The notes: generated from the sequence alone by a model not told the origin. Counted from the first letter of the stretch, positions 1,957 to 27,267 are shown. The stretch: 32,000 nt of DNA from Kiritimatiellia bacterium (GCA_007134735.1 SLKG01000037.1:65286-97285), one strand, 5' to 3'. A program made the numbers and translations.

Positions 1957-2029
1957 GTTCGGCTCTTTTTACAGCCCCGTTCAGGAATGCGTCGGATACA
2001 GCGGGTCGCGGTGCATGCCGCACACCCTC

Positions 2030-2058
2030 AAGCTAAATCCATGCGTGTGCGGCGTCAA
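2030..2058 (-). promoter_or_regulatory. Candidate sigma70-like promoter for the DUF2723 gene
   Basis: Minus strand reads TTGACG (2058..2053), a 17-nt spacer, then TAGCTT (2035..2030). It lies about 75 nt upstream of ATG 1956 in the 157-nt gap after the UbiA gene. Motif match only. Confidence 0.25.
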
Positions 2059-2113
2059 GCGATACCCCTTGCCTTCCCCGGTTTGGATGCCGCGGGGCGT
2101 CCATTTGTTCACA

Positions 2114-3025
2114 TCACCGCAGCAGTAAAACCAGCAGTACCGTCAGGCCGTACAACGCGATGTTGATGAGCAGGGGTTTATCCGTCAAAAGAATTTTTTC
2201 CGGCCGGCCGCCCTGTTCATGGCGGTAGACCAGGTCCAGGTACCGGAATAAACCGAAAATGACGAACGGTATGGTGAAACCGAGCCCGGTGGTCCCGAAC
2301 TTATCGACCGTATCCGGCCACAGGGTATACAGCGCATAGGAGACGATGGTCGCCGCGCTGACAATGGCGATCAGCTGGTCCAGCAGCCGCTCGTCATATT
2401 GGACCATGCTCGCGCGCGTGGTGTCCGCGATTTCGTTGAGGACGACTTTTTCATGCCGCCGTTTGCAGAGTCCGAGAAACAGGGCCAGCAGCAGGGCGCA
2501 CAACAGCAACCAGGGCGAAATGGTGACCTCAATGACCAGGGCGCCGGCCAGGGCCCGGAGCACGAATCCCCCAGCAATGACGAATATGTCAATGAGGGCG
2601 ATCTGCTTCAGGCCGAATGTATACACGACCTGCAGTCCCGCATACGCGGCCAGGGCCGTGAAAAACGGGGGGGATAGGATCCAGCCGCCCGTCAAACCCG
2701 CAAGGAGAAGGACGGCGGAAAGAAGCAGGGCCGTTGGGATCGGCAATTCACCTGACGCTACCGGGCGCCGTTTTTTCGTGGGATGTTTCCGGTCGTATTC
2801 GATGTCCCGGACATCGTTCAGAAGATAGATGCCGCTGGACACCAGGCAGAAGAGGAGGGCCGCCGGAAGGACCCACGCGATATGCGCGATGGTAATGCCC
2901 TGGCCGGGATCGCCCAGGGCGAAGATAAACGCGGCGAATACCACGGCGTTCTTGGTCCACTGTGTCACGCGCAACGCCCGCAGCAGCATCAGGGGGTGTC
3001 CGGAAATAAACGGGTACTTGATCAT
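2114..3025 (-). CDS. UbiA-family prenyl-phosphate phosphoribosyltransferase (decaprenyl-phosphate phosphoribosyltransferase-like)
   Basis: Sequence includes LRALRVTQWTKNAVVFAAFIFA, the NDxxDxxxD motif (YLLNDVRDIEYDRKHPTKKRRPVASGEL) and multiple TM helices. I set the start at the internal ATG 3025..3023 (MIKYPF...), which overlaps the upstream stop as ATGA. The track's 3103 start would overlap the upstream gene by 82 nt. Confidence 0.85.
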   Translation of the reverse strand: MIKYPFISGHPLMLLRALRVTQWTKNAVVFAAFIFALGDPGQGITIAHIAWVLPAALLFCLVSSGIYLLNDVRDIEYDRKHPTKKRRPVASGELPIPTALLLSAVLLLAGLTGGWILSPPFFTALAAYAGLQVVYTFGLKQIALIDIFVIAGGFVLRALAGALVIEVTISPWLLLCALLLALFLGLCKRRHEKVVLNEIADTTRASMVQYDERLLDQLIAIVSAATIVSYALYTLWPDTVDKFGTTGLGFTIPFVIFGLFRYLDLVYRHEQGGRPEKILLTDKPLLINIALYGLTVLLVLLLR

Positions 3026-3771
3026 GAGGCCACACTCCGCGGATGACGGCTCCGGGGCCGGCGCCGAAATCCGGATTTGAATGCCAGTTTCCAAACAATC
3101 CATAGCGCTTCCCGTACAATCGACGTGCTCATTTTCGATTGTCCCGACCGGCGCTCTTCAAAAGTAATGGGAACATCCACGATATGAAATCCCAGCATCC
3201 ACGCATTGAATGTCATTTCCACCTGGAACGAATACCCGTCCGACCGGACGGCGTCGAGGTCGATGGCTTCCAGCACCTCGCGCCGGTAGCACTTGAAGCC
3301 GCCGGTGGGATCGGTAAAGGGAAGCCCCGTGATCATGCGCACATAGACCCCGGCGCCCTTGCTGAGACACAACCGGGACAACGGCCAGTTAATGACCCGG
3401 ATGCCGTCGACGTAACGGGATCCCAATACCAGGTCGGCGCTCTCCGCGGCCGCCCGCATGCGGGGGATCTCAGCCGGATCGTGTGAGAAGTCCGCGTCCA
3501 TCTCGAATATGAACCCGTATGAGCGTTCCAGCGCCCATTTGAATCCGGCCGTGTAGGCCCGGCCCAGTCCCATTTTTCGTTCGCGGTGCAATACATGAAT
3601 GCGGGACTCCCGCTCGCTCAACTCGTCCAGCAACTCGCCGGTGCCGTCCGGCGAGTTGTCGTCCACGTACAGCAGATCCGTTTCCGGATAATGATCGAAC
3701 ACGGCGCGCTGGATATCCTCCACGTTGTCGTGCTCGTTATACGTGGGCACAATGATCAAAGTGTCGTTCAT
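3022..3771 (-). CDS. GT2 polyprenol-phosphate glycosyltransferase (dolichol-P-mannose synthase / Ppm1-like)
   Basis: Sequence includes IIVPTYNEHDNV, YVDDNSPDGT and FEMDADFSHDP, the pattern typical of DPM1/Ppm1-type GT2 enzymes. It has a 4-nt ATGA overlap with the downstream UbiA gene. Confidence 0.9.
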   Translation of the reverse strand: MNDTLIIVPTYNEHDNVEDIQRAVFDHYPETDLLYVDDNSPDGTGELLDELSERESRIHVLHRERKMGLGRAYTAGFKWALERSYGFIFEMDADFSHDPAEIPRMRAAAESADLVLGSRYVDGIRVINWPLSRLCLSKGAGVYVRMITGLPFTDPTGGFKCYRREVLEAIDLDAVRSDGYSFQVEMTFNAWMLGFHIVDVPITFEERRSGQSKMSTSIVREALWIVWKLAFKSGFRRRPRSRHPRSVAS

Positions 3772-3861
3772 TCCGGTAGCACTTTAGGGGACACGGCGAA
3801 AAAAACAAGCCGATGTTGTTTTGAATCGATCCATGGCGTATGATACGTGCGGCAGTGTATT

Positions 3862-4422
3862 ATGAAATATCCCCTCCATTATTATGGCGATCCGATTCTT
3901 CGGGAGAAAACCGTTCCGGTGGCCGAGGTCACGGATGAGATCCGCGCCCTCTCGGACGACATGATCGAGACCCTGCATTCGGAAAACGGGATCGGGTTGG
4001 CGGCCCCGCAGATCGGCCGGCGGGAATCCCTTTGTGTGGTGTATGTGCCCGGGGAATACGATGTGGATGAGGAAGGGCATCGGCTGAATCCGGACGCGGC
4101 GATGCCGATGGTGCTGATCAATCCCGAAATTACGGAACCGTCCGATATTCAGGCCGCCCGGGATGAGGGGTGCCTGAGCATTCCGGATATATACGCCGAG
4201 GTGGTTCGGCCGTATGAGATCCGGGTGCGGTACCTCGACCGCGAGGGCGTGTCCCGTGATGAACGATACCGGGGTTTGGTGGCGCGGGTGATTCAACACG
4301 AGGTGGACCATCTCAACGGGATTCTGTTCATCGACCGCATTTCCCACGTAAAGAAGATCGCCCTCCGGGGCCGCCTTAAGCGTCTGCGTCGCGAAACGGA
4401 AGAGCGGTTCAAGCCGGCGTAG
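3862..4422 (+). CDS. def: Peptide deformylase
   Basis: All three Def motifs are present: GIGLAAPQIG, EGCLSIP and HEVDHLNG. The track start 3847 is a GTG. ATG 3862 gives MKYPLHYYGDPILR, a typical Def N-terminus. Confidence 0.95.
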   Translation: MKYPLHYYGDPILREKTVPVAEVTDEIRALSDDMIETLHSENGIGLAAPQIGRRESLCVVYVPGEYDVDEEGHRLNPDAAMPMVLINPEITEPSDIQAARDEGCLSIPDIYAEVVRPYEIRVRYLDREGVSRDERYRGLVARVIQHEVDHLNGILFIDRISHVKKIALRGRLKRLRRETEERFKPA

Positions 4423-14014: not shown

Positions 14015-15874
14015 TCAATCCGTCAGTCCTTCCAGCCAGATCATCCATTGGGCCACGTCACTGCCGTATGGTATGCCTGATATCTGTTCCAAGGCCTGGG
14101 ATGCGGAATGCCGAACCCTTGCGTCCGGGTCTTCAAGGAGAAGGTTGATCAACGGTTCTGCCGCCTGCAGGCTGCCTGTTTTCCCAAGTGCTTCAGCGGC
14201 GCGCAACCGGACCCAGCGATTATCATCGTCCAGGCTTGAAATCAATTCAGCGGCCGCCAGCTCTCCCAGGTTCCCCAATGCTTCGATGGCGGCATTTCGA
14301 ACGCCGGCGTGCCGGTCTTCCAGGGCGGCAATCAACGGCGGTACGGCGCGGATATCGCCCACTCGGCCCAGTGCCTCCGCCGCGTATTGCCGGACCCTCC
14401 GGTGCCGATCGTCAACCGCGGAAATCAAGGACTGTATGGCCCGTTCATCTCCGATTCTTCCCAGCGCCTCGGCGGCATATTGCCGAACTCCGGCATCATC
14501 ATCCTCGAGCGCGGAAATGAGTTGTTCTACCGCGCGTACCGCGCCCATTGTTCCCAGTGCCTCGGCCGCCCGTTCCCGAATATCCGAATCGGGGTCATCC
14601 AAGGCCAGGCTCAGTCGCTCGATTGATTCTTCACGTCGCCTTTCTTCTTCCAGTGCTCTTTCAATAGCCTCCTCGGCCCGGGCGATTTGACCGGCGGCGT
14701 CCGTCCGTTCCGGGTTCAGATCCAGCAGCTGCCCGAAGGTCTGTATGGCGTCCTCGTACTCCCCGGCCCCGTATTGTTCCATGCCGGCGGCAAACAAAGC
14801 GTCTTCCTGTTCCTTTTTTTTCCGGGCTTCCATTTGTTCTCTGAATGCCGCCTTCGCTGAAGTCATCTGTTCGGCCGCATCCGCTCGATCCGGATTCAGA
14901 TCCAGCACCCGCCCGAAGAACTCCATGGCCCCCTCGTAATCCTCTTCGGTGTAACGTTCCATGCCGTCGGAAAATAACCGGTCCTTTTTCGCCTTCTGTT
15001 CGCGCTCCTCAATGGCCGCTTTCGCCGAAGTCATCTGTTCGGCCGCATCGGATCGATCCGGGTTAAGGATGAGCACCCGCTCAAAGAGCTCCATGGCTTT
15101 CTCGTAATCCTCTTCGGCGTAGCGCTCCATGCCATCGGCGAACAACGCGTTTTCATTCTCTACCGGATCCGCCCAATAGTGTAACAGGGCCCATCCGATG
15201 CCCAGGCTCAACGCGATCAATGCCGCCAGCGCCATGCCGGCATTGACCATTTTGCGTTTGCGCATCCTGTGACGTATGGTGTCGGGGACCGTGGAGCGAT
15301 CCGGGGGCGGAGGAGGCAGTCGCGGTCTCTTTACGCCTCGTTCGTCGAGCACTTTGATAATTTCCCGCTCGACTCCGTCGAGTATTTCCTTGCGGATATA
15401 TCGCCATCCCTTTTCGCTGTCGATAAAATCGATCAGCGGAGTCGGTTTGCCGGGCAGGATTGTGCGGAAGGAAACAAATTCTATTTTTTCCCAGGCACAG
15501 GGCTCGACAAGAATGGATACCAGTTTGAGTTCATTATTTTTGACCCGCTCGCAAATGCGCGGAAATTCTACCGTCTGGATGAAGTCGGAGTTGAGGAACG
15601 CGCTGCTGATCAGTAGTATGGCGATATCGGCCTGATCGATTTCCCGCTCGATGCGCTCCTTGAAATTCTGGCTCGGGGTCAGATCTTTCGTGTCATACCA
15701 GAACACCGTGTGGTAATAGCGCTTGAAAGATTTGGCCAGCCAGGGAATGAGCGCGAATTCGCTTTCGTCATCGGGCACCCACCGCTTGCCCTCGTCCCTG
15801 TATCCCAGATAACGGCATTCCTCGCGGGCATAACTCACGAAAATGCGTATTTCCTGCGCTGTTTCCTCGGTCAT
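14015..15874 (-). CDS. TIR-domain membrane protein with TPR-like and HEAT repeats
   Basis: - aa 8-175: TIR-like (IRIFVSYAREE..., DIAILLISSAFLNSDFIQTVEFPRI).
- aa 200-234: basic cluster RHRMRKRK followed by a TM helix.
- aa 244-415: three TPR-like units of 56-60 aa.
- aa 431-600: five to six 31-aa HEAT/PBS-lyase-type repeats (VRQYAAEALGRIGDERAIQSLISAL).
- Start: GGAGG lies 7 nt upstream of the ATG. Confidence 0.85.
   Translation of the reverse strand: MTEETAQEIRIFVSYAREECRYLGYRDEGKRWVPDDESEFALIPWLAKSFKRYYHTVFWYDTKDLTPSQNFKERIEREIDQADIAILLISSAFLNSDFIQTVEFPRICERVKNNELKLVSILVEPCAWEKIEFVSFRTILPGKPTPLIDFIDSEKGWRYIRKEILDGVEREIIKVLDERGVKRPRLPPPPPDRSTVPDTIRHRMRKRKMVNAGMALAALIALSLGIGWALLHYWADPVENENALFADGMERYAEEDYEKAMELFERVLILNPDRSDAAEQMTSAKAAIEEREQKAKKDRLFSDGMERYTEEDYEGAMEFFGRVLDLNPDRADAAEQMTSAKAAFREQMEARKKKEQEDALFAAGMEQYGAGEYEDAIQTFGQLLDLNPERTDAAGQIARAEEAIERALEEERRREESIERLSLALDDPDSDIRERAAEALGTMGAVRAVEQLISALEDDDAGVRQYAAEALGRIGDERAIQSLISAVDDRHRRVRQYAAEALGRVGDIRAVPPLIAALEDRHAGVRNAAIEALGNLGELAAAELISSLDDDNRWVRLRAAEALGKTGSLQAAEPLINLLLEDPDARVRHSASQALEQISGIPYGSDVAQWMIWLEGLTD
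14075..14584 (-). repeat. Intragenic 93-nt periodic repeats encoding HEAT-like units
   Basis: 31-aa periodicity: DIRERAAEALGTMG..., VRQYAAEALGRIGD..., VRQYAAEALGRVGD..., VRNAAIEALGNLGE..., VRLRAAEALGKTGS..., VRHSASQALEQISG. These are coding repeats, not a CRISPR array. Confidence 0.75.
14630..15145 (-). repeat. Intragenic tandem triplication (units of about 168-180 nt) encoding the TPR-like units
   Basis: Long near-identical nucleotide blocks. For example, ctcgtaatcctcttcggcgtagcgctccatgccatcgg (about 15100) matches ctcgtaatcctcttcggtgtaacgttccatgccgtcgg (about 14930). Likewise gaagtcatctgttcggccgcatc occurs at about 15030 and about 14860. At protein level the units read LFADGMERYAEEDYEKAMELF / LFSDGMERYTEEDYEGAMEFF / LFAAGMEQYGAGEYEDAIQTF. 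Confidence 0.8.
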
Positions 15875-16038: not shown

Positions 16039-16455
16039 TCATGCTTCATTTTGCATGAAATTTGTAGCATGGCGCCGCATGAAGTCCCCCACTGTTCCGC
16101 ATAAGAGGCGGTTCCCCATGTCCGGAAACGCCACCCATTCACCGGCGTCATGTTCTTCGCTTAACCGGAAATGGCCGCCGGTGATGCGGGCGTTCATGCA
16201 GAGGAGGACGACGTGTGCGGAAGGCATTTCGAATTCGGTGGCGCCGGCGAAGCCGATGACCTCAATTTCGTAGCCGGTTTCCTCGAGGGTTTCACGGAGA
16301 AGCGCCGTGACGAAATCCTCCCCGTGATCGACCTTGCCACCGGGCCATTCCCAGCATCCGGCGAAGCGTTTGTTGATGTTTGATCTTCGTAACAGCAGGC
16401 TTTGCCGGGCATCGTTCTGGATGATGGCCTTGACGGCCAGCCAATACGATTTCAT
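16039..16455 (-). CDS. NUDIX hydrolase
   Basis: Complete Nudix box G-x5-E-x7-RE-x2-EE-x-G is present in GGKVDHGEDFVTALLRETLEETGY. The ATG 16455..16453 lies 1 nt after the TGA (16459..16457) of the upstream gene. An AAAGG SD sits inside that gene's 3' end. Confidence 0.9.
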   Translation of the reverse strand: MKSYWLAVKAIIQNDARQSLLLRRSNINKRFAGCWEWPGGKVDHGEDFVTALLRETLEETGYEIEVIGFAGATEFEMPSAHVVLLCMNARITGGHFRLSEEHDAGEWVAFPDMGNRLLCGTVGDFMRRHATNFMQNEA

Positions 16456-16456
16456 G

Positions 16457-19033
16457 TCAACCTTTCTTGTGTTGCTTGGTTGAGGTGGGTTTGCGCGCCC
16501 GCTTTTCGGATCGCCTCACTTCCAGGCCCGCCCGGGCCAGAATTTTCGGAAATTCCTTGATCGCATTTCGGTCGTAATGCCGAACGTCATCGAGGCCGGG
16601 ATCGGACCAGGGGATCAGGAAGGGATGCGTCTTGTTTGCGTCGTTGCGGATCTGCCCGTAACGCCAGCCGGCCCGTATGCGTTCCACGTTCCAGCGGCCG
16701 TGTTCCATTTCGGCCATCCGCTCGATTTCTTCCTCGGTGAACACGATGTCCGCCCTTGGCCGTGCGGCCGGCCGGACGATGAATCCGCAGTTTTCCAGGA
16801 TCCGTCTCGCGTACCGGGCTTGTTCCCGGTTGGCCTGGCGGTAGGTTTCGTCCATCGCTTCCCATGGGCGCATGTTGGCGGGGAGGCGATGGGCGCTTTC
16901 CTCCACATAGCGGGCGTGAAAGGCCTGAGCCATCCGTTCCGTGGTGTTGGTGTCCAGCTCGCCGTCTCCCGGTCTGAGCAGGGCGTGGAAAGAGGCCCGG
17001 TCCATGGGAAACGGCATCAGATTAGGCACCCCGGTCCAAAGCGAATCCCGGTTGAGCGCGTCGGCGCTTCCTCCTGATCCCTGCGCGCTGACGATGCGGG
17101 CGCCCAGCGCCAGGGCTACCCGGTATTCCACCGCGCTGATGGGGCCGCCGCCGAATCCGATGCAGATCACGTCTTTTGGGGCGATGCCCTTGTCGAATAG
17201 GTCCTGCCAGCTTTTGAGGACCTGGTCCGGCGAGAAACCGGCCTCGCCGCAGGGCACGAGACGGTCATAGCGTTTGTCTTTCACTGCGTCGTGCGGCAGT
17301 TGGTCCGGGATATAGCCGATCAGTTCAAACCGTTTCTTTTTCGAGCGGTGGAGATCGGCCGCCGTTTTGCCTGCGCATCCCGGCACACCGGATTTGGTTC
17401 CACCGGAAATGACCAACCCGTCAAAAGTGGTTAATGCCTCGCTGATCAACGGCCGGATGATTCGGGTTATCTTTTTATCCAGCGATGCGGCGCCGCCGGC
17501 CAGGACGATGGCTTTGGGCGGCAGGGCGCCCAGCGCATCCGTATCCGCGCCGGCCCGGTCCGCCAGATCCAGTAGATCCAGCACCCAGCGATGATCCGCC
17601 GGGGCCTCCTCGCCCACATGCAGTCGCTCCACCCATTCCCGTTCCACCGCGAGCGCGTCCGTCGGAGCGCAATGAACGCCGGCCAGACAATAACGAATGC
17701 CCCGCGCATAATAACCCAGCGCATCCAAGGGTTGATCGAGCAACAGATGGAGGCGGCCGGCCGTAAACCAGGCTCGGGGCAGTTCGATCCCGGCTTCCGC
17801 ATGGCTTTGGCAGGTACGGATGCCCCCCCGAAGGGCGGTACGCATGCCCGCCGGCCGGGCATGGTCGCGTCGGCTGTAGATTTCGAAACCGAGCATATCG
17901 GCGAGGTAGTAGGGGTTTTCCGGTTCATGTTCGTGGGCCTGTCGGTGGTGTTGACGGGCGGCGGGCCATTCACTCCGCAGGGGTTCCAGCGCCCAGCCCA
18001 GCCGCGAGAGTGCGCGCGCATGCAGGCTTTCGCGTTTTCGCAGGTGCGGCACGAATGGGCATCCGCGTTCCCGGCATAGGGCCTCGGCTTTCTCCAATAA
18101 CGCCCGGCCGCGCCGGTATTCCTTCGATTTCGGTTTCCCACGATAAATCTTGCAGAGCGCGAAACCCAGATCCTGAAGCATTTCACAGCGGTTGGCGCCG
18201 GATGCCTTTTCATACGGCGCCAGTGTTCGCTCGACGGCCTTGTAATCACCGCATGCGGCGTGGAGCCGGCCCAGCGTCAACGCCAGGACAGGGCGTTTGG
18301 CCGTGTTGGGTTCATGATCCAGAATCAATTGTTGTACCTGGATTTCCCGCAGCACGGCATCCCGGGTTGCGTAGGATGCGTAATTGGCCAGCATGCCGTC
18401 AATGTCCTGCGCCATACGGTTATAGTTGCGGTCGCCTTCCTCCATCAGGGCGGCGAGCAGGTTGCCGGTCCGCTTCACCTCGGAGGACAGTTTGAGTGGA
18501 TTCTTGTAAATCCGGTCATGTAACGTGTCGGCCCAGGCATGTTGAAGCCAGGTGCGGACTTGAATTTCCGCCCGCCGGTTACCGATCGCTTGGATTTCAT
18601 TGGGCTTGAACCCGAGGGCAGCCGCCTTTTTCGGTATGAGCCGCACGATATAGTGCATGTCGCGATATCCGAACCGGTCGTCTCCCAGATTCAACCCTTT
18701 TTCGTCGGCCTCGAGGATTTCGAAATTCGACTCGATAAACGTGCGCACGGCCCGGACTTGTTCCAAGGTTTGTACGATCACCCGCGCTCCGCATAAATCG
18801 GTCAGATCGTGTACCGGATCCTTGTATTTTTGATGTTTCCGCACCGCCTTTTCGGCGAAACTTGATATCGTTTTGTCCCGTGCTTGAACCAGCGCATCGG
18901 GAATTGAAGCCGCGCAGGCGTGTTCCAGTATTCGGCGCAGAGCAACGGCGTGGGTGGCGTATCGCGGTTGTTCCCCGGCATACAATTTGATTTGACGCCG
19001 GTGTTCTGTCGGAGTGATACCCTTGGATGCCAT
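16457..19033 (-). CDS. RelA/SpoT-domain nucleotide pyrophosphokinase fused to TPR-like linker, SLOG (LOG/LSDAT-like) sensor and RyR-type C-terminal module
   Basis: - aa 25-180: RelA/SpoT synthetase motifs ARDKTISSFAEKAVRK, DLTDLCGARVIV, GYRDMHYIVRL and AEIQVRTWLQHAWADTLHDRIYK.
- aa 230-500: helical TPR-like region.
- aa 505-665: Rossmannoid SLOG-like motifs IVLAGGAAS, VISGGTKSGVPGCAG, LIGYIP, ICIGFGGGPISAVEY and QGSGGSADAL.
- aa 698-835: RyR-like region (MRPWEAMDETYRQANREQARY and EMEHGRWNVERIRAGWRYG..KTHPFLIPWSD).
- Start: I chose ATG 19033, which has AAAGGAGGGA 7 nt upstream. The track's 19156 start is a TTG. Confidence 0.85.
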   Translation of the reverse strand: MASKGITPTEHRRQIKLYAGEQPRYATHAVALRRILEHACAASIPDALVQARDKTISSFAEKAVRKHQKYKDPVHDLTDLCGARVIVQTLEQVRAVRTFIESNFEILEADEKGLNLGDDRFGYRDMHYIVRLIPKKAAALGFKPNEIQAIGNRRAEIQVRTWLQHAWADTLHDRIYKNPLKLSSEVKRTGNLLAALMEEGDRNYNRMAQDIDGMLANYASYATRDAVLREIQVQQLILDHEPNTAKRPVLALTLGRLHAACGDYKAVERTLAPYEKASGANRCEMLQDLGFALCKIYRGKPKSKEYRRGRALLEKAEALCRERGCPFVPHLRKRESLHARALSRLGWALEPLRSEWPAARQHHRQAHEHEPENPYYLADMLGFEIYSRRDHARPAGMRTALRGGIRTCQSHAEAGIELPRAWFTAGRLHLLLDQPLDALGYYARGIRYCLAGVHCAPTDALAVEREWVERLHVGEEAPADHRWVLDLLDLADRAGADTDALGALPPKAIVLAGGAASLDKKITRIIRPLISEALTTFDGLVISGGTKSGVPGCAGKTAADLHRSKKKRFELIGYIPDQLPHDAVKDKRYDRLVPCGEAGFSPDQVLKSWQDLFDKGIAPKDVICIGFGGGPISAVEYRVALALGARIVSAQGSGGSADALNRDSLWTGVPNLMPFPMDRASFHALLRPGDGELDTNTTERMAQAFHARYVEESAHRLPANMRPWEAMDETYRQANREQARYARRILENCGFIVRPAARPRADIVFTEEEIERMAEMEHGRWNVERIRAGWRYGQIRNDANKTHPFLIPWSDPGLDDVRHYDRNAIKEFPKILARAGLEVRRSEKRARKPTSTKQHKKG

Positions 19034-19127
19034 GAGTCGTTCCCTCCTTTCGAAGTGCCGTGCGAGCCATGTTGAGGGCGGGAAGAGTGTGATTTCGAGG
19101 CACCCCTCCGCCACGCAGAACGGTGAA

Positions 19128-19321: not shown

Positions 19322-19398
<77 letters not shown>

Positions 19399-19406
19399 AT
19401 TTAGAA

Positions 19407-19445
19407 GCAAGAAAGCCCTGTGTTTACAGGGCTTTCTTGCTTTTG
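19407..19445 (+). terminator. Rho-independent terminator after the tRNA
   Basis: Perfect 14-bp stem gcaagaaagccctg / cagggctttcttgc with a 6-nt loop tgttta, followed by TTTTG. Confidence 0.85.
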
Positions 19446-19705: not shown

Positions 19706-22700
19706 CTATTGAGGAATGAAGCGAAGCCGGATAAATAGGGGTTCGGAAAAAACCCATTCGGGTATTCGTATGCGGATTTCTTCGGTTTGATCGTCCCCCG
19801 TGGGGACCGGCGGATCCCGGTGGTAGACCGGCAAGGTTTCCAAGGCAACCCACGCGTCGTCCAGCTCCCGCGCTACCTCGACTTGATATTCCACACCCCG
19901 CTCCTCATGTATGAGCCGCCGATAGGTGTACGTGAGGTATTCCGTTTCCCCGTCCGTCATTATTCCCATCCGGGGCAGGGCGGGCTCGATCGCGTCGGTA
20001 CGATTCAGCCCGAGCGCATATTTGGCCAGATTGGCCCAGCCGTCATCATCCGGCATCGCATCCGGACCGCTGATGGCCGGGTCCTCCAGTTCCTCCGGAT
20101 CGAAATTATCGGACAACCATCGTTCATGGGGCAATTGCCCCCCTTGAAACCGCACCCGCATGATCCGGCCGGTGACCGTGCCCTCCACAAAATCCGCCAC
20201 CGCCCTTGCGGTATCGACCGTGAAGGTCAACGGTCCGGTGTATTCCGAATAGCGCCGGCCGTTGAATCCGACCGTCCCGTCGGAATCACGCACGTAATAC
20301 ACAGCATGCGCGCCCTTCATGTTCGCAAGAAAATCCGTGTCCTGGTCCGTAAAGAACCCGCCGCGGAATACATCATCCGGATGGAAGGTTTCCACGTCGA
20401 AATACAGGGCCACCCGATTGCCCGCATTGAAGTCATGTGCAAACGGATCCGCCCCATTGAGTCTCAGGAGCGCGTTGCCGCTTTCCACCGTCTGCGCGTA
20501 GGCCGGGGATCCCGGACGGCCGAATCCGAACGCGTACCAGAGTCCGTTAATGGAATCCGCTGTAAGAATGGACGATTCGAGAGCCACCTCACCTGAGCCG
20601 CTCAACAGCCCGGCCGTGCCGCTGCCCGACACATGGGTGCCGGGTTCAAGGATCACCGGCGCGGTCAGGTCGCCGTGTAGATGCACGGCGCCGGCTTCTA
20701 TGCGAAGCGTTCCCGTGAATGTATCGCCGCTTCCCGCCAGTCGCAGGATCCCGTCACCGGTTTTTGCGATCTCGTGCGCGCCTTTCAGCGCCCCCGAAAC
20801 GGCGAGGGTGTTGTTCGATCCCTCCACGTGCCATCCGCTGTCTCCCCGGACAATAACGGGTCCTGCGATGCGGGCGTAATGGGTTCCCGGTCCCGGCTCA
20901 TACCGCAGGGCGCCGCCGGAATCCGGTCCTCTCCCGGTCAGCTTCAACGGCCCACCGAAGGAATGGATCCGGGGATCATTTCCGGAAACCAGGCGCAATT
21001 GGGCCCCGGCTTTAACCAAAATCTGCGTTGATGCCGAAGGTGTGGCCGGTTCCGTTATTTGCAATACGCCGCTTTCGATCCGGGTTTCTCCCGTATAGGT
21101 CTTGCCCGGTCCAGTCAACGACGCCGTTCCGGGTCCGTCCTTGATCAGGGCCCCCGGCCCGCTCCAGCTTTCGCGCAACCGCAGTCCTCCGTATTCCGCA
21201 TGACCGCCCGTCGACTGCACTGTGAGACGCACGTCGGATTCCAGGAAAACCCCGCCCTGAACCCGGAATTCCACAAATCCCGTTCCTTCATCGGTCACGG
21301 TGACCGCCGCTTCATGGTTCGTGGAGGCAAAGTGCAGAGACGCGTGGCCGCCGGTATCCTGAATGCGATTGCGTCCGCCGTTTCCCGGTCTGTGTACGAT
21401 CAGGTGGCCGATCGTAATGTGATCGTTCAATTTCACGTCACGGCGATCGTTCGCGGGTTGGCGTATCACGGCCACGGTCGATGTGCCGTCGGGATAGGTA
21501 TCCGTGGTCCAATTGATCGCTTCGGCCCACGTGGCATCGTCCTGGGCCAACAACACGGGGATGTCGGAACCATTATCCGGAAGGTGGGCGATCGGATTCC
21601 CGTCGGCGGTCATGGTACCCGGCAGGCCCTCCTCAAAGACCGACGCATCCAAGAGCGCGCCGTCCGCGAGCGAGCGGACTTCGATGCGCCGTACCCCCGA
21701 GGACAGCGCGTTGGGGATCAACGCGCCCCAGAACCGCGGGTTTGTCGCGACCAGTTCCTCGTAGAAAAGCGCATAGCGTTCGTCGATGTCGCTCCCTGTC
21801 ATCTCGATGGGCGTGGCGGCCAGAGGACGGGAATGGCCCTGCTCGTCCTCGTACAGAACGACGAAATGACCGGGATCGAATTCCGATTTCCCCACAAGGC
21901 CCGTGGCCTCGTGGGCGCCCTCTCCGAATTCAAGGATCTCCACGCCGCCGGTTGTCGTCAGTAGGTGATGATAGGCCGTGCCGTCCGCGCCGTCGTTCAG
22001 CAGGATCCGCATGTTCAACGTGTTCCCGGGATCGAAGCGCCGGTTGCCCGTCGGTTCCGCGATAAACCATCCTTCGTACGTGCCGTCCTCATCCGTTACA
22101 AACGTCCCGTGCCGCTCGTCCAGGTCATCCGGCATGAAGCGCGGCGCATCCGTGTTGCGAATGAACGCATCGCCGTTTGTCTTTACGAAGATCATGTTGC
22201 CCGCACCGTCCTGATCGGGCGGATCGTCGAATGCCGCAACCCGGTTTCCATAGCGATAGATCGTGTTCGTTTCCAGCCCTTCCAATTTCAACCGATAGGC
22301 ATAGGGCACGCGGTTCAGGTTGCTGCCGTCCCGGTCCTGTTCCCCCTGGATAAAACGGGGCAACAGAATCTCCGTGAGGCGGACCGCGGTGAACCGGTTG
22401 CCGGCCGCCGGCTCGGTGTCTTCCGCTTCCGCCGACAACTGGAAGGCGCCCGCCCCGTCACCGATGTGCAGATCCCCGAAGAACGCAATCCCGTTGACGG
22501 CTTGTACCGAGCGAGTTCCCGAAAGCGTCCCGTCGCCGATAAGGGTGAGTTCGACGATACCTGCGAAATTGGTTACGATCATGCCTGCGGCATCTACGGC
22601 GCGAACGACGACCAGGCCCAACGGTTCCCCGCTCTGAACCACCGACGGATACGTGTCGAACAGTAGGTGGGCCACCGGTCCGGCCGGTGCGCACGTGACG

Positions 22701-25700
22701 GTGATGTCGTCCAACCGCAATTCCGCCCGTGGGCCCGTGTCGCCCCAGGCCCGGTAATATCGCCAGAGCAACTGAACATAGGGTTCACCCAGTGCCTCGG
22801 ACGGTAATTCCACCGGGCCGAACGCCTCGACATGACCGGCCACGTCATTCCGGACATATTCGAGGGGGCGATCCCGGCCATCCCGGACATCCATGAATGG
22901 GCCTTCCGTTCCGATCCGGTACTGCAGGCGAATCGCATAGGTCCGGTCATTGGGCGTCACCGTGCCCGCCATCCAGGCCACGCGACCCTCCGTTACCCCC
23001 GTTGTATCCACGGCCATCAGGGCTCCGCCCAGGTCGCGCTCCCGTCCCGTATTGATGAAGGAAAGACCCTGTTCCCCCAATGCATTAATCCGGGTGCGGG
23101 CCGTGTTGTTGTAGGGATAGCCGTGGCTCTCGTGATCATCCGGATGATAGTTCCCGGTCTCCAATGAATAGGCGTGGGACAGGGGAGTCCCGGCTCCCGG
23201 ATCGCTCTCCTCGCTCTGCAGGAACAGCATGTGTTCGGGATAATGACCGTCGGGTTCATCCGGATGCCATTCACTAAATACATAAGGCCCATTCGACAGG
23301 GCATGAGCCGATGGGTAAACCAGCAGATCAAAGGACGTCTGTGTCGGGGGATGTACATGATCGTCCGCCGCGATCGTAACCGTGGCGTTGCCGCGTTGAA
23401 GCGGATATACGGTCAGGGTGGATCCGTCAACCCCGGGATCCGCGACGTGGATATTGTCCGCGTGGGCGGTAAACGTCACGCCGTCCTTCTCCGCCACATG
23501 GAAAACGTTGGAGAGATTCACCACGGCGGGATCGCCGTTCTCGATCAGATACCGGCGCTCAATCGGCTCCTTCAGTCGGGGCGGCAGGTTGGCGGCATCC
23601 CACGCCCGCCCTTCCGCGGTAATATTATCGAAGCGGTGGTTTCCCGCCGGGCCTCCGTGGCCTTTCTCGAACGTAATGCGCAGCCCGAACTCGGCGTTGT
23701 TGTTCACCTCCGGAATTCCGGAGAAATCAAAGGTGTGCCGAGCGGGGATTTCGGTCACCGTCAAGCGGTCCCAATGCTGGTAATGGGTTCCATCAACCGT
23801 GTATTCAATCACCTGTGTGCCGGCCCCGGAAGAGGACCGGCGGGTTTCATAGTGCACAACCACATATTCGAAACCGGGTGTAGGCAATGCGATATGGATT
23901 TCCGCGTCCAGCGGACGGTTCACACGCAGATGGGAGCCGGCCGCATCGCCAAAGCGTGCATTTTCCCCGCTGAAATGCTCTCCGGTTCCGGGGAGGATGT
24001 CCGTGTGGGGTCCCGGTTCCACGGTCAGGCCGGACCCTTCCGCGAGCGAATAAGTCGGTCTCAGCAGATTCTTCTCGTCATTAAAATTCCAATAGTGGAT
24101 CAGGGAGGGTCGGGTCTCCAGTCCGCCCAGGGCTTTTACCGTCGGCGTACTCCAGTGTCCGTGCGCATTTCGGGTCCGGGCGGTCAGCAGGGCCGGGCCT
24201 TCCACGGACAGGGGCGCCGTATATTCCGTGCCCGCCACGCCTCCTCCCGGTGCGCGCGGATCGCGGCCGTCGAGCGTAAAGAAGATCGACCCCCCCGACG
24301 GACTTTCGAACCATATTTCAGAACCGTTCCCGTCGGCCACGGGCGGCGGCGGCAACATTCCCTCGTCTTGGCGTCGACGATCCATCCAGTTGGCTCGCGG
24401 GATTACCCAATCAATCAAACGCTGAATCTCATTCGTGTATTCATTCCCGACATATGGCCTGTCGGGCCACCGATCCAGGTTGCGGGCGGCGGCGGATTCA
24501 ATGGTATCGCAGGACCGGTTGATTTCTTCACCCATCGCACGAATCAACTCCTCCAGCGCTTCATCCGAGAAAACCGTTGCCCGCCATTCCGCCCAGCGAT
24601 CGTAAAACGCCTGCCTGAAATCCGGATCCAGGCACAGCCAGTCCCACCAGTCATCAGAGTGAAAGTAGGGGGTGGAATCTCTGGTTCCGTACCACGTGTC
24701 CCACCGGGAATCGCGCGGGTCATGAGATCCCATGGACCGGTCGAAATCCCAAATCGGACCGGCCTGCAAAAGCTGATTTTCGGGTTTGTGGAAATATGCG
24801 CTTAATCGAAGGCCATCAACGTTCTTTGCAAACGCGTTCAACAGCAGGTGGTCCACCCAGGAATCCCGGTCGATGTAATCCAGGTAATCCCGGGATTGAA
24901 AATTGCCGTCGCGATCCAAAACCAAAGCGTCCTCAAACGCCTGCACATACGATACGACGTAATCAACCTGCCGGGAGTGAATGCCGGCTTCGACATAGTT
25001 CGGATAGGGACCCCCATCCAGGCTGTGTATCTTGGGACGGGAAATCACGAGAGGGAAGGAATGAGGTTCGTCCGGGATGCGGCGATCGGTTTCCCACTCG
25101 TATTCGTCCACGGCGGCACGATCAATCTTCAGTATATAACCACCAGTCCAGGGACCCTTTACCGCTACGTCGATCGGTCCTTCCGGCGGGACTTCGTCCC
25201 GGTTGATATTGTGATGTCCCAAGCGGCCCGGCCCCTGCTTGATCCGTTCGATGATGGCATAGACCCCCACATAATCCTCTTCCGTTAAATCCTCGCCGTC
25301 ATGATTGACGTACACTTCCACAAAACGCGAATCGGGCGCCCAGCGTCCGCTTCGTCGGGACAGCTCATAGATCAAAGAATTACGAATAATGGCCCTGTCG
25401 TACCCATATCCCGGATAGAAAACCCAATCCGATTCGGGGCGCATCCCAAGGAGAGCCAAAGAAGTATCCCGGTCATATTCATCCCGGAATTCCACCGAGT
25501 ATGGTTTTTTGGGCCAATGCATCGAGCTGGATCCGCGATGACGGAGACCCTGTCGGACGGCCAGCTCCGGCCTGCGGGTTAGCGCGCTGACGCCTTCGGG
25601 GTCCCGGTCGAACAGAAAGAAGAACCCGTCGTGGCGGGGTTTCCCTTCCGGGGTCCGGGTCCGGTCATTTCGGTGCGGTCCCACCGGAGTGATTTCCGCG

Positions 25701-26629
25701 CCCCGGGCGTCCATCACGACGATCGGTAGAAACGAACGCCGGTCCAGCAAGTCGTCTCCGAGTCGTATGTAATGCCGGGTGGCCGGATGACCGGCGGCGT
25801 CGTGCGCATCAAAAATGCGGGCGCGCAACAACGTGGTCTTCGTCAGCGTCAAGGGTTGTTCGTAGAGGGCGGATTGTTTGTCCGGAATGGAACCGTCCGT
25901 GGTATATCGAATCACTCCGATGTGGTCTGCGCCCGCCAACGACACCGTGACTCGGTTGGTAAAGGTGCGCGACGGTTCCGAAAAGATCACGGTTTCCGAT
26001 AACAGATGACCGCCCGGTCCCGCATTCTCGGTCCCCGGGGTGGGGACGGCAAACCGGGTCCATGTATGCGGATCGTCCTGTTTGCGTCCGTATGAAAAGT
26101 CCCGCGGCATCGGGAGCCATGTAACGCGATCGACCACCTCGCCGTTCGGCGCCGTCAGCAGAACGGTATCGCCGTCTTTCCCGATGCTGAAATTGGCGTG
26201 GAGTGGATGGGCGGGATCGGTGCGATTTTTCCGGGAGGCCCAAACGATTAGATAGCCACCGCTTTCGATCACGGTCTGATCGGGGAACACCCACCTGAAC
26301 GGACTGATATCGTCGTCGGAAAGCCCCCAGCCGGAAAGATCCACCTCATCTTGACCCGGATTGTACAATTCGATCCAGTCCGGGTAATCTCCGTCTTCAT
26401 CCTCAAGGGTTGCCCCGTTTGAGGCCATTACTTCGTTGATCCGAACCGCTTGGGCCTGCTGTCCTGGCGTAAACGCCAGGATACATAAGGCACTCAAAAG
26501 CCCCAGCCCCGCCGGGAACCCCCTTGTTCTTCCTGTCCGGAAGATCGCGATAACCGCACTCCTTGTCCGTACCGGCCAACCGTTAAGAACCAATTGTAGA
26601 ATATACACCTCAAAAGGGCGGCGCTCCAC
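19706..26629 (-). CDS. Giant secreted/surface protein: lamin-tail domain, CotH kinase-like domain, chitobiase-C/Ig-like domains, autotransporter-associated beta-strand (PATR) repeats
   Basis: 2307 codons.
- Signal-like segment: GFPAGLGLLSALCILAFTPGQQAQA.
- aa 61-175: LTD (VRINEVMASNG...DYPDWIELYNPG..VDLSGWGLSDD).
- aa 215-275 and 770-825: CHB_HEX_C-like (IRYTTDGSIP, IFFTLDGRDP).
- aa 300-750: CotH (KKPYSVEFRDEY..., IIRNSLIYELSRRSG..., VGVYAIIERIK).
- About aa 1760-2040: PGTASLTGPGKTYTGETRIESGVLQI and GILRLAGSGDTFTGTLRIEAGAVHL repeats.
- Start: the track start is a GTG, so the exact start is uncertain. Confidence 0.9.
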   Translation of the reverse strand: MERRPFEVYILQLVLNGWPVRTRSAVIAIFRTGRTRGFPAGLGLLSALCILAFTPGQQAQAVRINEVMASNGATLEDEDGDYPDWIELYNPGQDEVDLSGWGLSDDDISPFRWVFPDQTVIESGGYLIVWASRKNRTDPAHPLHANFSIGKDGDTVLLTAPNGEVVDRVTWLPMPRDFSYGRKQDDPHTWTRFAVPTPGTENAGPGGHLLSETVIFSEPSRTFTNRVTVSLAGADHIGVIRYTTDGSIPDKQSALYEQPLTLTKTTLLRARIFDAHDAAGHPATRHYIRLGDDLLDRRSFLPIVVMDARGAEITPVGPHRNDRTRTPEGKPRHDGFFFLFDRDPEGVSALTRRPELAVRQGLRHRGSSSMHWPKKPYSVEFRDEYDRDTSLALLGMRPESDWVFYPGYGYDRAIIRNSLIYELSRRSGRWAPDSRFVEVYVNHDGEDLTEEDYVGVYAIIERIKQGPGRLGHHNINRDEVPPEGPIDVAVKGPWTGGYILKIDRAAVDEYEWETDRRIPDEPHSFPLVISRPKIHSLDGGPYPNYVEAGIHSRQVDYVVSYVQAFEDALVLDRDGNFQSRDYLDYIDRDSWVDHLLLNAFAKNVDGLRLSAYFHKPENQLLQAGPIWDFDRSMGSHDPRDSRWDTWYGTRDSTPYFHSDDWWDWLCLDPDFRQAFYDRWAEWRATVFSDEALEELIRAMGEEINRSCDTIESAAARNLDRWPDRPYVGNEYTNEIQRLIDWVIPRANWMDRRRQDEGMLPPPPVADGNGSEIWFESPSGGSIFFTLDGRDPRAPGGGVAGTEYTAPLSVEGPALLTARTRNAHGHWSTPTVKALGGLETRPSLIHYWNFNDEKNLLRPTYSLAEGSGLTVEPGPHTDILPGTGEHFSGENARFGDAAGSHLRVNRPLDAEIHIALPTPGFEYVVVHYETRRSSSGAGTQVIEYTVDGTHYQHWDRLTVTEIPARHTFDFSGIPEVNNNAEFGLRITFEKGHGGPAGNHRFDNITAEGRAWDAANLPPRLKEPIERRYLIENGDPAVVNLSNVFHVAEKDGVTFTAHADNIHVADPGVDGSTLTVYPLQRGNATVTIAADDHVHPPTQTSFDLLVYPSAHALSNGPYVFSEWHPDEPDGHYPEHMLFLQSEESDPGAGTPLSHAYSLETGNYHPDDHESHGYPYNNTARTRINALGEQGLSFINTGRERDLGGALMAVDTTGVTEGRVAWMAGTVTPNDRTYAIRLQYRIGTEGPFMDVRDGRDRPLEYVRNDVAGHVEAFGPVELPSEALGEPYVQLLWRYYRAWGDTGPRAELRLDDITVTCAPAGPVAHLLFDTYPSVVQSGEPLGLVVVRAVDAAGMIVTNFAGIVELTLIGDGTLSGTRSVQAVNGIAFFGDLHIGDGAGAFQLSAEAEDTEPAAGNRFTAVRLTEILLPRFIQGEQDRDGSNLNRVPYAYRLKLEGLETNTIYRYGNRVAAFDDPPDQDGAGNMIFVKTNGDAFIRNTDAPRFMPDDLDERHGTFVTDEDGTYEGWFIAEPTGNRRFDPGNTLNMRILLNDGADGTAYHHLLTTTGGVEILEFGEGAHEATGLVGKSEFDPGHFVVLYEDEQGHSRPLAATPIEMTGSDIDERYALFYEELVATNPRFWGALIPNALSSGVRRIEVRSLADGALLDASVFEEGLPGTMTADGNPIAHLPDNGSDIPVLLAQDDATWAEAINWTTDTYPDGTSTVAVIRQPANDRRDVKLNDHITIGHLIVHRPGNGGRNRIQDTGGHASLHFASTNHEAAVTVTDEGTGFVEFRVQGGVFLESDVRLTVQSTGGHAEYGGLRLRESWSGPGALIKDGPGTASLTGPGKTYTGETRIESGVLQITEPATPSASTQILVKAGAQLRLVSGNDPRIHSFGGPLKLTGRGPDSGGALRYEPGPGTHYARIAGPVIVRGDSGWHVEGSNNTLAVSGALKGAHEIAKTGDGILRLAGSGDTFTGTLRIEAGAVHLHGDLTAPVILEPGTHVSGSGTAGLLSGSGEVALESSILTADSINGLWYAFGFGRPGSPAYAQTVESGNALLRLNGADPFAHDFNAGNRVALYFDVETFHPDDVFRGGFFTDQDTDFLANMKGAHAVYYVRDSDGTVGFNGRRYSEYTGPLTFTVDTARAVADFVEGTVTGRIMRVRFQGGQLPHERWLSDNFDPEELEDPAISGPDAMPDDDGWANLAKYALGLNRTDAIEPALPRMGIMTDGETEYLTYTYRRLIHEERGVEYQVEVARELDDAWVALETLPVYHRDPPVPTGDDQTEEIRIRIPEWVFSEPLFIRLRFIPQ

Positions 26630-26769: not shown

Positions 26770-27267
26770 ATGAATCAATATCTTGTGGTGGCGGCGGATG
26801 CGGTTCGCGCCCGTTTCTTTCACCTACAGGGAGCGGATGAGCCGGCCCTGGAATCCGGTCCGAACCTGGTGGAGGACGATGTCCTGTTGAATCCGGAGCA
26901 AGCCATGTCCGATCGGGATGTTTTTTCGGAAAACAAATCCGGGCGAAACCGCACCATGGGATCCTCTCCGCACGGTTACGACGATCATCGCGATAAACAT
27001 GCGGATGAGAATGCCCGGAAATTTGCGCGGTTGATCGCGAAGGAAATTGTGACCCGTGCCGCGAAGCGTTCGATGCGCCATATTGTCCTTTCCGCGGACA
27101 AACGAATGCTCGGTATGTTGCGTCCGCAACTGGATGCCGGACGGCAAGCACAATGGGAAATCCGGGAATGCGCGGCGGATGTCAGTAAATTGGCGCCCGA
27201 CGCCTTGCACCATCATCTTGCCGGGAAGAAGCTGCTACCGCCCCGCCGGCGGCCAGGACCGGCCTGA
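26770..27267 (+). CDS. Host-attachment-protein family (bacterial eRF1-like, baeRF12) protein
   Basis: The family-like layout as I recall it: N-terminal YLVVAADAVRARFFHL, central SPHGYDDHRDKHADENARKFARLIAKEI, then HIVLSADKRMLGMLRPQL. AAAGGAG lies 9 nt upstream of the ATG. Confidence 0.7.
   Translation: MNQYLVVAADAVRARFFHLQGADEPALESGPNLVEDDVLLNPEQAMSDRDVFSENKSGRNRTMGSSPHGYDDHRDKHADENARKFARLIAKEIVTRAAKRSMRHIVLSADKRMLGMLRPQLDAGRQAQWEIRECAADVSKLAPDALHHHLAGKKLLPPRRRPGPA

Follow-up and report, generated by a model that had tools for sequence, protein, structure and literature searches.

What controls an alarmone synthetase that lacks a hydrolase domain and is fused to sensor modules resembling those of animal ion channels, and what removes its product? 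The question is raised by a gene on the minus strand, at positions 16457 to 19033, of a 32,000-nucleotide (nt) stretch of DNA from a Kiritimatiellia bacterium (GCA_007134735.1, SLKG01000037.1:65286-97285), which is referred to here as the window. The gene encodes an 858-amino-acid (aa) protein with four modules: a RelA/SpoT domain of the small alarmone synthetase (SAS) type, followed by a TPR-like solenoid, a SLOG domain of the TRPM type and a tandem RyR unit resembling Repeat12. The reading we prefer, to which a probability of roughly 0.55 is given, is that the protein is the effector of a three-part Thoeris-like system made up of a TIR protein, the RelA/SpoT homologue (RSH)-TPR-SLOG-RyR protein and a Nudix enzyme, in which a signal of the ADP-ribose (ADPR) type would gate the pyrophosphokinase and the Nudix enzyme would remove its product. 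Support for the functional steps is comparative, and is drawn from the anatomy of the protein, its conservation and its genomic coupling.

The open reading frame (ORF) runs from an ATG at 19031-19033 to a stop codon at 16457-16459. Although the frame is open upstream as far as a TTG at 19156, the ATG was accepted as the start because the N-termini of 25 homologues align with it. The gene, its ribosome-binding site and its modules are as follows.

16457..19033, minus strand: whole gene, RSH-TPR-SLOG-RyR protein, 858 aa plus stop codon (ORF list and translation)
19043..19048, minus strand: Shine-Dalgarno sequence AGGAGG, 9 nt upstream of the ATG
18443..19012, minus strand: RSH synthetase fold, aa 8-197, with Pfam RelA_SpoT at aa 52-178 (Pfam, PDB profile, Foldseek)
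17552..18364, minus strand: all-helical TPR-like solenoid, aa 224-494, between the synthetase and the sensors (DSSP of the AlphaFold2 model; Foldseek matches to SPY/OGT TPR arrays)
16964..17521, minus strand: TRPM-type SLOG (LSDAT) Rossmannoid, aa 505-690 (Pfam LSDAT_prok; TRPM fold matches)
16763..16951, minus strand: RyR repeat 1, degenerate, aa 695-757 (secondary structure of the model; tandem alignment to 6uhi)
16496..16735, minus strand: RyR repeat 2, aa 767-846, with the tetrad H778, W781, H803 and D821 plus R796 (Pfam RyR; PDB profile)

Pfam gave three matches to the protein, all exceeding the gathering score: RelA_SpoT (PF04607; aa 52-178, E = 2.9e-16, 60.2 bits against a cutoff of 27), LSDAT_prok, described as 'SLOG in TRPM, prokaryote' (aa 509-578, E = 7.7e-7, 29.0 bits against 25.4, with the profile only partly covered), and RyR (PF02026; aa 768-840, E = 2.5e-13, 50.5 bits against 27.4). 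Pfam matched no HD, TGS or ACT domain anywhere in the 858 aa. An AlphaFold2 model of the full protein, for which 26 homologues were used as input, was confident, with a predicted local distance difference test (pLDDT) score of 85.1 and a predicted template modelling (TM) score of 0.82, as was a second model of the C-terminal half only (pLDDT 88.7). Foldseek recovered every module of the models separately, the matches being RelQ, RelP and CapRel for the synthetase, the TPRs of SPY and OGT for the solenoid, TRPM2 MHR1/2 and the LOG-like TM1055 for the SLOG domain, and RyR Repeat12 for the C-terminus. An identical protein (P0001) is encoded on contig PWJR01000070.1 of a metagenome-assembled genome (MAG), GCA_003559975.1.

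The motifs of a working synthetase (RxKxxxSxxxK, DxxGxR, GYR-x-x-H and EIQ(I/V)RT...H.W...H...YK) are all present and align residue for residue with RelQ-type enzymes. Conservation was counted throughout in 223 full-length family members. R52, K54, S58, K62, D79, R84, Y123, H127, E156, Q158, T161, H165, W167, H172 and K177 are each kept in 97-100% of them; when G82 and R160 are included, the catalytic residues occur in 215 to 223 of the 223. The variable positions within these otherwise conserved motifs are R124 and D125. The domain therefore reads as a catalytically intact pyrophosphokinase domain of the SAS type inside a large protein, and not as a degenerate relic. A profile of the first 235 aa was run against all PDB sequences, and the strongest matches were of RelQ type (2be3, E = 4e-14; 3l9d, 1e-11), followed by YjbM (2e-8), CapRel (3e-6), RelP (1e-5), FaRel2 (0.02) and a 346-aa chain entitled 'GTP pyrophosphokinase' (9s6k, 0.021). 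No long RSH was identifiable in this search at E <= 10. Foldseek gave TM scores of 0.65-0.69 for RelQ and 0.44 for CapRel (E = 2.1e-5). By these comparisons the N-terminal domain is closer to SAS than to long RSH.

The same matches bear on the substrate. An otherwise identical system could employ a pyrophosphokinase of the CapRel/FaRel2 type, which would modify the 3'-CCA end of tRNA and so block translation directly, with no diffusible alarmone. CapRel is both among the top folds and within reach of the RSH profile, and toxic SAS (toxSAS) enzymes are established effectors of defence (PMC11559606). The best PADLOC match of the synthetase, moreover, is a defence-candidate model of about 349 aa, PDC-S33 (3.7e-15), and this model also picks up RSH proteins encoded by a filamentous phage and by a toxin-antitoxin-rich plasmid; no mention of PDC-S33 was found in a literature search. 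We nevertheless consider a tRNA acceptor quite unlikely, as RelQ-type enzymes are the nearer relatives in both profile and fold, and the MutT-like Nudix enzyme encoded next to the synthetase would, by our reasoning, probably leave a 3'-phosphate on the tRNA instead of a 3'-OH, so that a nucleotide product fits better.

The SLOG domain has Gly loops at G513-G514, G544-G545-T546-x-x-G549 and G626-x-G628-G629-G630, plus E636, and most of the Gly-loop residues are at least 94% conserved. Its motifs are GGAAS (aa 513-517), SGGTKSG (aa 543-549), GFGGGP (aa 626-631) and GSGGS (aa 652-656). The top PDB folds for a model of the SLOG-RyR part were the MHR1/2 regions of TRPM8, TRPM2, TRPM4 and TRPM5 (E = 1e-8 to 1e-6), and 49 of the top 50 were TRPM-channel structures; the TRPM2 entries matched include ones which, according to their titles, were bound to ADPR, dADPR or the cyclic ADPR (cADPR) analogue 8-Br-cADPR. 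The LOG-like TM1055 (1rcu) also matches the SLOG fold, with a TM score of 0.63. A ThsA-like SLOG was rejected, because the PADLOC ThsA models gave no match to the protein and TRPM channels, not ThsA, dominate the fold matches. By profile and by model the domain is a member of the TRPM (LSDAT) clade. The SLOG/LSDAT families were reportedly defined by Burroughs et al. 2015 (NAR).

The C-terminus was modelled as two helix-helix-strand repeats, the second of which is the only one seen by Pfam. The tandem unit aligns with a two-repeat Bt-hRyR_12 chimera (6uhi) over 175-180 columns, with TM scores of 0.61-0.64, and a PDB profile search of the RyR unit gave E-values down to 5e-31. Repeat 1 retains H706 and Y709, and is without the phosphate-contacting His and without the Asp. 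In repeat 2, EHGRWNVERIRAGWRYG occupies aa 777-793 and HPFLIPW aa 803-809, and H778, W781, R796, H803 and D821 are invariant in a 26-sequence alignment. Across the family, H778 is kept in 99%, position 781 is Trp in 93% and aromatic in 99%, position 796 is Arg or Lys in 97%, and D821 is kept in 96%. The spacing of the tetrad is 3/22/18, compared to 3/22/17 in phage RyR proteins. Those phage proteins bind or cleave 2'cADPR and 3'cADPR, the residues concerned in RyDEP being H75, W78, H100 and D117, which are reported to be kept across PF02026 and in animal RyR Repeat12 (PMC13232231). Other phage RyR homologues bind these signals at nanomolar affinity, and just one of the homologues tested cleaved the signal, though the residues are kept in the rest (PMC13232231). 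In the sponge protein RyR-Tad the equivalent positions are H129/W132, K147/H154 and K170/D171 (bioRxiv 10.64898/2026.06.04.730250). Both of these sources are 2026 preprints, and neither mentions host proteins of the RSH-SLOG-RyR architecture. Rather than being a passive module, the RyR unit probably serves as a second site for a ligand or as a glycosidase that acts on the signal. Because catalytic residues (at least 97%), Gly-loop residues (mostly at least 94%) and RyR residues (93-99%, except H803) are all conserved, the synthetase, SLOG and RyR modules are judged to be jointly under selection.

Much of this anatomy had been proposed in a sequence-only reading of the window, and every domain call made in it was correct. 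The start it had chosen for its Shine-Dalgarno sequence is the one at which the homologues begin. The C-terminal 650 aa or so, which it had held not to be a TGS/ACT region, were resolved by Pfam and the fold search into TPR, SLOG and RyR modules; the Rossmannoid and RyR motifs lie where it had placed them, and its plural 'RyR repeats' is borne out by the two modelled repeats that align with Bt-hRyR_12. The AlphaFold/Foldseek comparison it had proposed gave a confident model in which all the named modules were found as folds. It erred in starting the synthetase motifs about 25 aa after the ATG, since the first catalytic motif (R52/K54) is about 50 aa in. The fold itself begins at about aa 8 and there is no HD match, in agreement with its argument that no space is left for an HD hydrolase domain. 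It had likened the SLOG domain to both ThsA and TRPM, and the likeness to TRPM stands while that to ThsA does not.

The architecture was found in more than 400 database proteins, at 50-75% identity and a length of about 845 aa. An exhaustive search with the synthetase domain gave 289 clusters (50% identity) at E < 1e-30, nearly all of them 800-900 aa long. A query of genome contigs with the single protein returned nothing, and it was an alignment-based rescan that gave the loci, of which there are 54 among 185,579 species-representative genomes; the set analysed below consists of 53 family loci from the genome scan and the window. Most carriers are Planctomycetota, Verrucomicrobiota, Lentisphaerota and Kiritimatiellia. 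Scattered carriers at 40-55% identity are found in Acidobacteria, Deltaproteobacteria, KSB1, Bacteroidales, Accumulibacter and one Bathyarchaeota MAG, a pattern that suggests horizontal transfer. In the archaeal case (L036, Candidatus Bathyarchaeota MAG, CAVTMS010000009.1), the member is 49% identical and has a Nudix gene beside it; its 288-kb contig was placed in an archaeal bin, and the explanation is either a cross-domain transfer or a binning error. Close homologues occur in non-syntenic contexts, and in some loci transposases lie near the gene. Given this sporadic distribution, the non-synteny and the nearby transposases, the gene is best described as accessory and horizontally moving. 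Plasmid and phage collections contained no full-length homologue, the matches there being to the RSH domain only, at 28-37% identity.

The sole cultured carrier found is Oligosphaera ethanolica DSM 24202 (L040, NZ_JAUSVL010000001.1 3664173-3682770), in which the RSH-...-RyR gene encodes 885 aa. At the same locus are genes for a TrkA_N-RyR protein of 615 aa, a trypsin-like peptidase protein of 1006 aa and a TIR_2 protein of 351 aa. It resembles a multi-effector island, and it provides an experimental handle.

The distribution also has to be weighed against a housekeeping role, in which a resident synthetase and Nudix hydrolase, regulated by NAD or ADPR, would substitute for the stringent response in bacteria belonging to the Planctomycetes-Verrucomicrobia-Chlamydiae (PVC) group that are reported to be without a long RSH. 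A 2011 survey saw no RSH in the Planctomycetes, Verrucomicrobia and Chlamydiae that it sampled (PMC3153485), the family is concentrated in the PVC phyla, and its length and sequence are highly conserved; a Nudix or HD_4 domain followed by a synthetase, as described below, would also recreate the hydrolase-synthetase logic of long RSH. Such a role is very improbable, however, for a gene that is present at so few loci and is not universal in PVC bacteria. Its occurrence outside PVC, suggestive of horizontal transfer, and its non-syntenic surroundings with transposases point the same way, as do the frequent TIR-STAND neighbours and PADLOC defence-candidate matches.

The second component of the proposed system lies 1 nt downstream of the synthetase stop codon.

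16039..16455, minus strand: MutT/NudG-like Nudix hydrolase, 138 aa, with an intact Nudix box, GKVDHGEDFVTALLRETLEETGY (Pfam NUDIX, 4e-18)

Its nearest PDB and NCBIfam matches are MutT and CTP-pyrophosphohydrolase types, not ADP-ribose pyrophosphatases, and PADLOC assigned it to a defence candidate, PDC-S07 (3.8e-22). A Nudix gene (135-180 aa) is directly adjacent to the family gene, up- or downstream, in 27 of the 54 loci, nearly always co-directional and with short gaps or overlaps, often of 4 nt. Four of the 50%-identity clusters have the Nudix domain fused to the synthetase: P0232 and P0279 are Nudix-Nudix-RSH-...-SLOG-RyR, P0333 is Nudix-RSH-TPR, and P0252 is RSH...RyR-Nudix, with the Nudix at the C-terminus. 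Two others, P0305 and P0326, carry an RSH-type HD_4 hydrolase, its HDxxED and D...N motifs intact, where the N-terminal Nudix would be, and this replacement at the same position argues that the Nudix enzyme acts on the synthetase product. In long RSH the product is hydrolysed by the HD domain, as is proposed here for the Nudix enzyme, and in toxSAS systems small alarmone hydrolase (SAH) antitoxins do likewise. To our knowledge, Nudix is not an established class of toxSAS antitoxin. A Nudix enzyme that degrades ppGpp has been documented in Thermus thermophilus (PMC3153485). Tandem duplication of the Nudix was also seen, as two adjacent genes at L064:8997-9960 (plus strand) and as the two fused domains of P0232 and P0279.

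The third component is encoded 583 nt downstream of the synthetase gene, past the Nudix gene.

14015..15874, minus strand: TIR_2 - transmembrane helix - TPR - HEAT protein, 619 aa (Pfam TIR_2, 2.3e-11, plus TPR and HEAT)

The TIR domain extends over about aa 5-176, with E103 as the putative catalytic Glu; every one of the 37 TIR-domain sequences aligned has Glu at this position. PADLOC matched the protein to its ThsB1/ThsB model at 9e-14, and it is the probable signal generator. ORFs were called and clustered at all 54 loci, TIR and DUF4062 domains were detected with iterated profiles, and DUF4062-STAND proteins were tallied apart from TIR. In 26 of the 54 loci a TIR_2 gene is found no more than 8 kb from the family gene; five further loci have DUF4062-STAND genes in this range, which brings the count to 31. 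Of 46 TIR or DUF4062 genes, 37 are within 3 kb of the target and nine are at 3-8 kb, a density about 7-fold higher nearby. The TIR genes are often co-directional with the target, at gaps of 3-60 nt, and several in one locus are common. In the partners the TIR or DUF4062 domain is often fused to an NACHT, NB-ARC or AAA_16 NTPase and to WD40 or TPR arrays. A complete 827-aa ORF of the form TIR_2-NB-ARC-RSH, whose C-terminal RSH domain belongs to this subfamily (47% identity), was found on a 4.5-kb contig (P0240, JGI sample 3300075153, gene 1733-4216); in it the EIQxRT motif is changed to EVQLQT, and its RSH domain may be inactive. Within the TIR-TPR-HEAT gene of the window there are three 132-nt direct repeats at 14667-15146 (70-83% identical, spaced 168-180 nt), which encode three near-identical TPR-containing modules.

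A number of observations weigh against the preferred reading. There is no TIR or DUF4062 gene within 8 kb in 23 of the 54 loci, and no adjacent Nudix gene in 27. P0002, the nearest homologue at 74% identity, is accompanied by a Nudix gene, but no TIR gene lies in the roughly 10 kb of sequence available downstream; its contig extends only about 200 nt upstream. The TIR partners vary widely in architecture and many are Avs-like STAND proteins, and TIR domains in STAND proteins are usually viewed as NAD+-depleting effectors, not as makers of signals. DUF4062 cannot readily be counted with TIR, as hhalign gave a probability of 2% for the pair. On the effector side, the sequence of the SLOG domain does not resemble that of ThsA, just 62% of the 223 members have His at position 803, and the acceptor substrate is not readable from the sequence. 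Full-length identities of 50-75% across phyla are also unusually conservative for a defence gene.

The synthetase and the Nudix enzyme could instead form a self-contained module, either a toxSAS-like pair of toxin and hydrolase antitoxin or a metabolic-stress switch, with the TIR-STAND genes as mere neighbours in defence islands. The ligand would then be, for example, free ADPR, NAD+ breakdown products, ATP or ADP, or a nucleotide made by a phage, and would not be made by a TIR neighbour. Thirteen of the 54 loci do have the Nudix gene with neither TIR nor DUF4062 inside 8 kb, and the titles of PDB entries record plain ADPR, ATP or ADP as ligands of TRPM-type SLOG domains and RyR Repeat12; P0002 and the heterogeneity of the TIR partners also fit. 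We consider this module unlikely. Against it stand the concentration of TIR genes close to the target, the existence of the TIR-NB-ARC-RSH fusion, the match of the window TIR protein to a ThsB model, and a RyR tetrad shared with proteins that bind TIR-made 2'cADPR and 3'cADPR at nanomolar affinity.

RyR domains were also found in a second protein type at these loci. It has two transmembrane helices, a TrkA_N domain (RCK/KTN Rossmann) and a C-terminal RyR with the H/W/H/D tetrad, and is about 560-630 aa long (P0195 and P0196 are examples). In four or more loci it is encoded next to the family gene and to TIR genes (L063:5284-7143 and L040:11092-12939, both plus strand; also L010, L042 and L049). 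This protein could be a channel-like effector gated by a ligand of the cADPR type, and would then combine a channel with a RyR domain in a prokaryote. A sensor shared between different effectors, as RyR is in these two protein types, is typical of signal-based defence systems. With the SLOG-RyR half as query, a search for other N-terminal effectors yielded for the most part fragments at contig ends, besides a single noisy nanopore contig, and gave no clean case of effector swapping; the evidence for swapping is provided by the TrkA_N-RyR neighbours. ClpB-like double-AAA+ proteins are encoded within a few kb in two unrelated loci (L058:6050-8305 and L063:7205-9793, both plus strand), one of them with an N-terminal TPR region.

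For the Thoeris-like system that we prefer, the following course of events is proposed. A trigger, probably infection, would cause the neighbouring TIR protein to make from NAD+ a signal derived from ADPR, for instance 2'cADPR, 3'cADPR or cADPR. This signal would be bound by the SLOG domain, the RyR module or both, and the RyR unit may additionally cleave it, which would provide a built-in reset or timer. The TPR solenoid would relay the binding event, either because autoinhibition is relieved or because the protein oligomerises, and the pyrophosphokinase would be switched on. Pyrophosphate from ATP would then be transferred to the 3'-OH of a purine nucleotide to give (p)ppGpp or (pp)pApp, and growth would stop; the CCA end of tRNA is the less likely acceptor, and would lead to growth arrest likewise. 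The Nudix enzyme, or the fused HD_4 domain in some relatives, would destroy the product, and in doing so would set the threshold for activation and shield uninfected cells.

The sequence-only reading had described a ligand-gated pyrophosphokinase that couples one nucleotide signal to the synthesis of another and whose product must be removed in trans. It had staked this on the conservation of the catalytic residues, and they proved to be kept in at least 97% of the family. Gating by a ligand is supported comparatively, in that catalytic, Gly-loop and RyR residues are conserved together. The coupling of two nucleotide signals gains support from the TIR linkage and from the RyR proteins that bind cADPR isomers in the 2026 preprints, and removal in trans from the next-door Nudix genes, the four fused clusters and the two with HD_4. 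The Nudix and TIR neighbours themselves had been overlooked.

A wider reading is possible, and is put forward as tentative. The locus would be an undescribed type of Thoeris in which a TIR-made cADPR isomer is read by a host SLOG/RyR protein, the output is (p)ppGpp or (pp)pApp, and the Nudix is the off-switch, so that NAD-derived immune signalling would for the first time be wired directly into the chemistry of the stringent response; the sponges and glycosidases of the RyR type in phages would have their cellular origin in host RyR domains; and TRPM-type SLOG, Nudix and RyR Repeat12 would have formed a toolkit of bacterial immunity from which parts were later taken into the animal TRPM2 and ryanodine-receptor channels. 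If the preferred reading is correct, an alarmone synthetase would join the effectors under TIR-signal control. Two major nucleotide-signalling systems of bacteria, NAD-derived immune signals and (p)ppGpp/(pp)pApp, would thereby be linked. The RyR domain, shown earlier (in the 2026 preprints) only in phage anti-defence proteins that bind or cleave cADPR isomers, would acquire a host-side role. The presence of TRPM-type SLOG, Nudix and RyR Repeat12 in one bacterial locus would also make the debated link of cADPR and ADPR to TRPM2 or RyR channels testable on evolutionary grounds.

The surroundings of the operon were otherwise unremarkable in GC content, and scans for promoters and terminators gave background levels only. 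A tRNA-Met (CAT) gene at 19322-19398 (plus strand) is followed directly by a perfect 17-bp hairpin at 19405-19442, which resembles a bidirectional terminator; the two separate the synthetase operon from a giant CotH gene. An island anchored in this tRNA-Met gene was ruled out, as the synthetase gene is on the 5' side of the tRNA and att-like direct repeats were not found. The giant gene, at 19706-26629 (minus strand) and thus just upstream across the tRNA-Met, encodes a secreted protein of 2307 aa (2240 aa as called) with LTD, Fn3_assoc, CHB_HEX_C, CotH and autotransporter-associated PATR repeats, and is unrelated to the synthetase gene. At 26770-27267 (plus strand), 7.7 kb from the synthetase gene, is a gene for a 165-aa protein with Pfam Host_attach and baeRF_family12 (bacterial/archaeal eRF1-like) matches. 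The baeRF_family12 family has previously been linked to conflict systems.

By its domain content, the RSH-TPR-SLOG-RyR protein is outside every named family, whether long RSH, single-domain SAS or the described Thoeris effectors. No description of the RSH-SLOG-RyR combination was found in the literature searched, which excluded Burroughs et al. 2015, where the architecture may be catalogued without a function. A 2025 systematic survey of Thoeris lists 29 putative types and deliberately discards TIR proteins of the Avs/STAND type; RelA, SpoT, RyR and Nudix are absent from its main text, and RelA, PF04607, RyR, PF02026 and alarmone from the supplements examined. The family was probably missed there owing to its STAND-type TIR partners and its uncultured PVC hosts.

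Compared to long RSH (Rel, RelA and SpoT), the 858-aa protein is without the HD, TGS, ZFD/CC and ACT/RRM regions, and compared to single-domain SAS of about 200-300 aa it is far larger and has four modules. RelQ and RelP are its closest characterised relatives in sequence and structure, and all the catalytic motifs align, but these are single-domain housekeeping tetramers under pppGpp or RNA control, whereas here the domain carries 650 aa of sensor and scaffold and is distributed sporadically. The toxSAS enzymes (FaRel, FaRel2, PhRel and CapRel, the last being a match in both fold and profile) resemble it in having an RSH synthetase domain that lacks a hydrolase and that acts, as is proposed here, as a growth-arresting effector; in toxSAS systems a hydrolase encoded by a neighbouring gene can neutralise the synthetase (PMC7229694). 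They differ in being about 200-370 aa long, where the present protein has nucleotide-sensor domains, in having SAH or proteic antitoxins where a Nudix enzyme (or fused HD_4 in some relatives) is found here, and in being activated by loss of the antitoxin or by capsid binding, where a small molecule is predicted here.

On the sensor side, phage RyDEP and RyR-Tad have the PF02026 domain, the two-fold Repeat12-like fold and the H/W/H/D ligand residues in common with the present protein, but those are small proteins with which phages counter defence, removing Thoeris signals as sponges or as glycosidases. The RyR unit described here is host-encoded, forms a pseudo-dimer within a single chain, of which one half is degenerate, and is joined to an effector enzyme; its predicted function is that of a receptor or of a timer that limits itself. 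Animal TRPM2 (SLOG MHR1/2 with NUDT9-H) and the RyR Repeat12 provide the best structures for the sensor half, and a Nudix accompanies the TRPM-type SLOG in both TRPM2 and the present locus. There is no ion-channel domain here, however, the Nudix is MutT-like and not NUDT9-like, and the output is an enzyme activity, so the likeness to TRPM2 and ryanodine receptors is modular and evolutionary, and is not one of family membership.

The nearest system as a whole is type I Thoeris (ThsB TIR with ThsA SIR2-SLOG), in which, as here, a TIR gene stands beside an effector that fuses a sensor of the SLOG superfamily to an enzyme of killing or arrest. The features expected of a Thoeris member, namely a TIR gene with a putative catalytic Glu near the effector and candidate sensor domains for an ADPR signal, are present in the window, although none of the PADLOC Thoeris effector models matches the 858-aa protein. 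The effector here is a RelA/SpoT pyrophosphokinase in place of the SIR2 NADase of ThsA, the SLOG is of the TRPM/LSDAT type, and a RyR Repeat12-like module, a TPR solenoid and a Nudix partner are added. Relative to the effectors gated by TIR/SLOG signals, it is the chemistry of the effector and the host-side RyR domain that are new.

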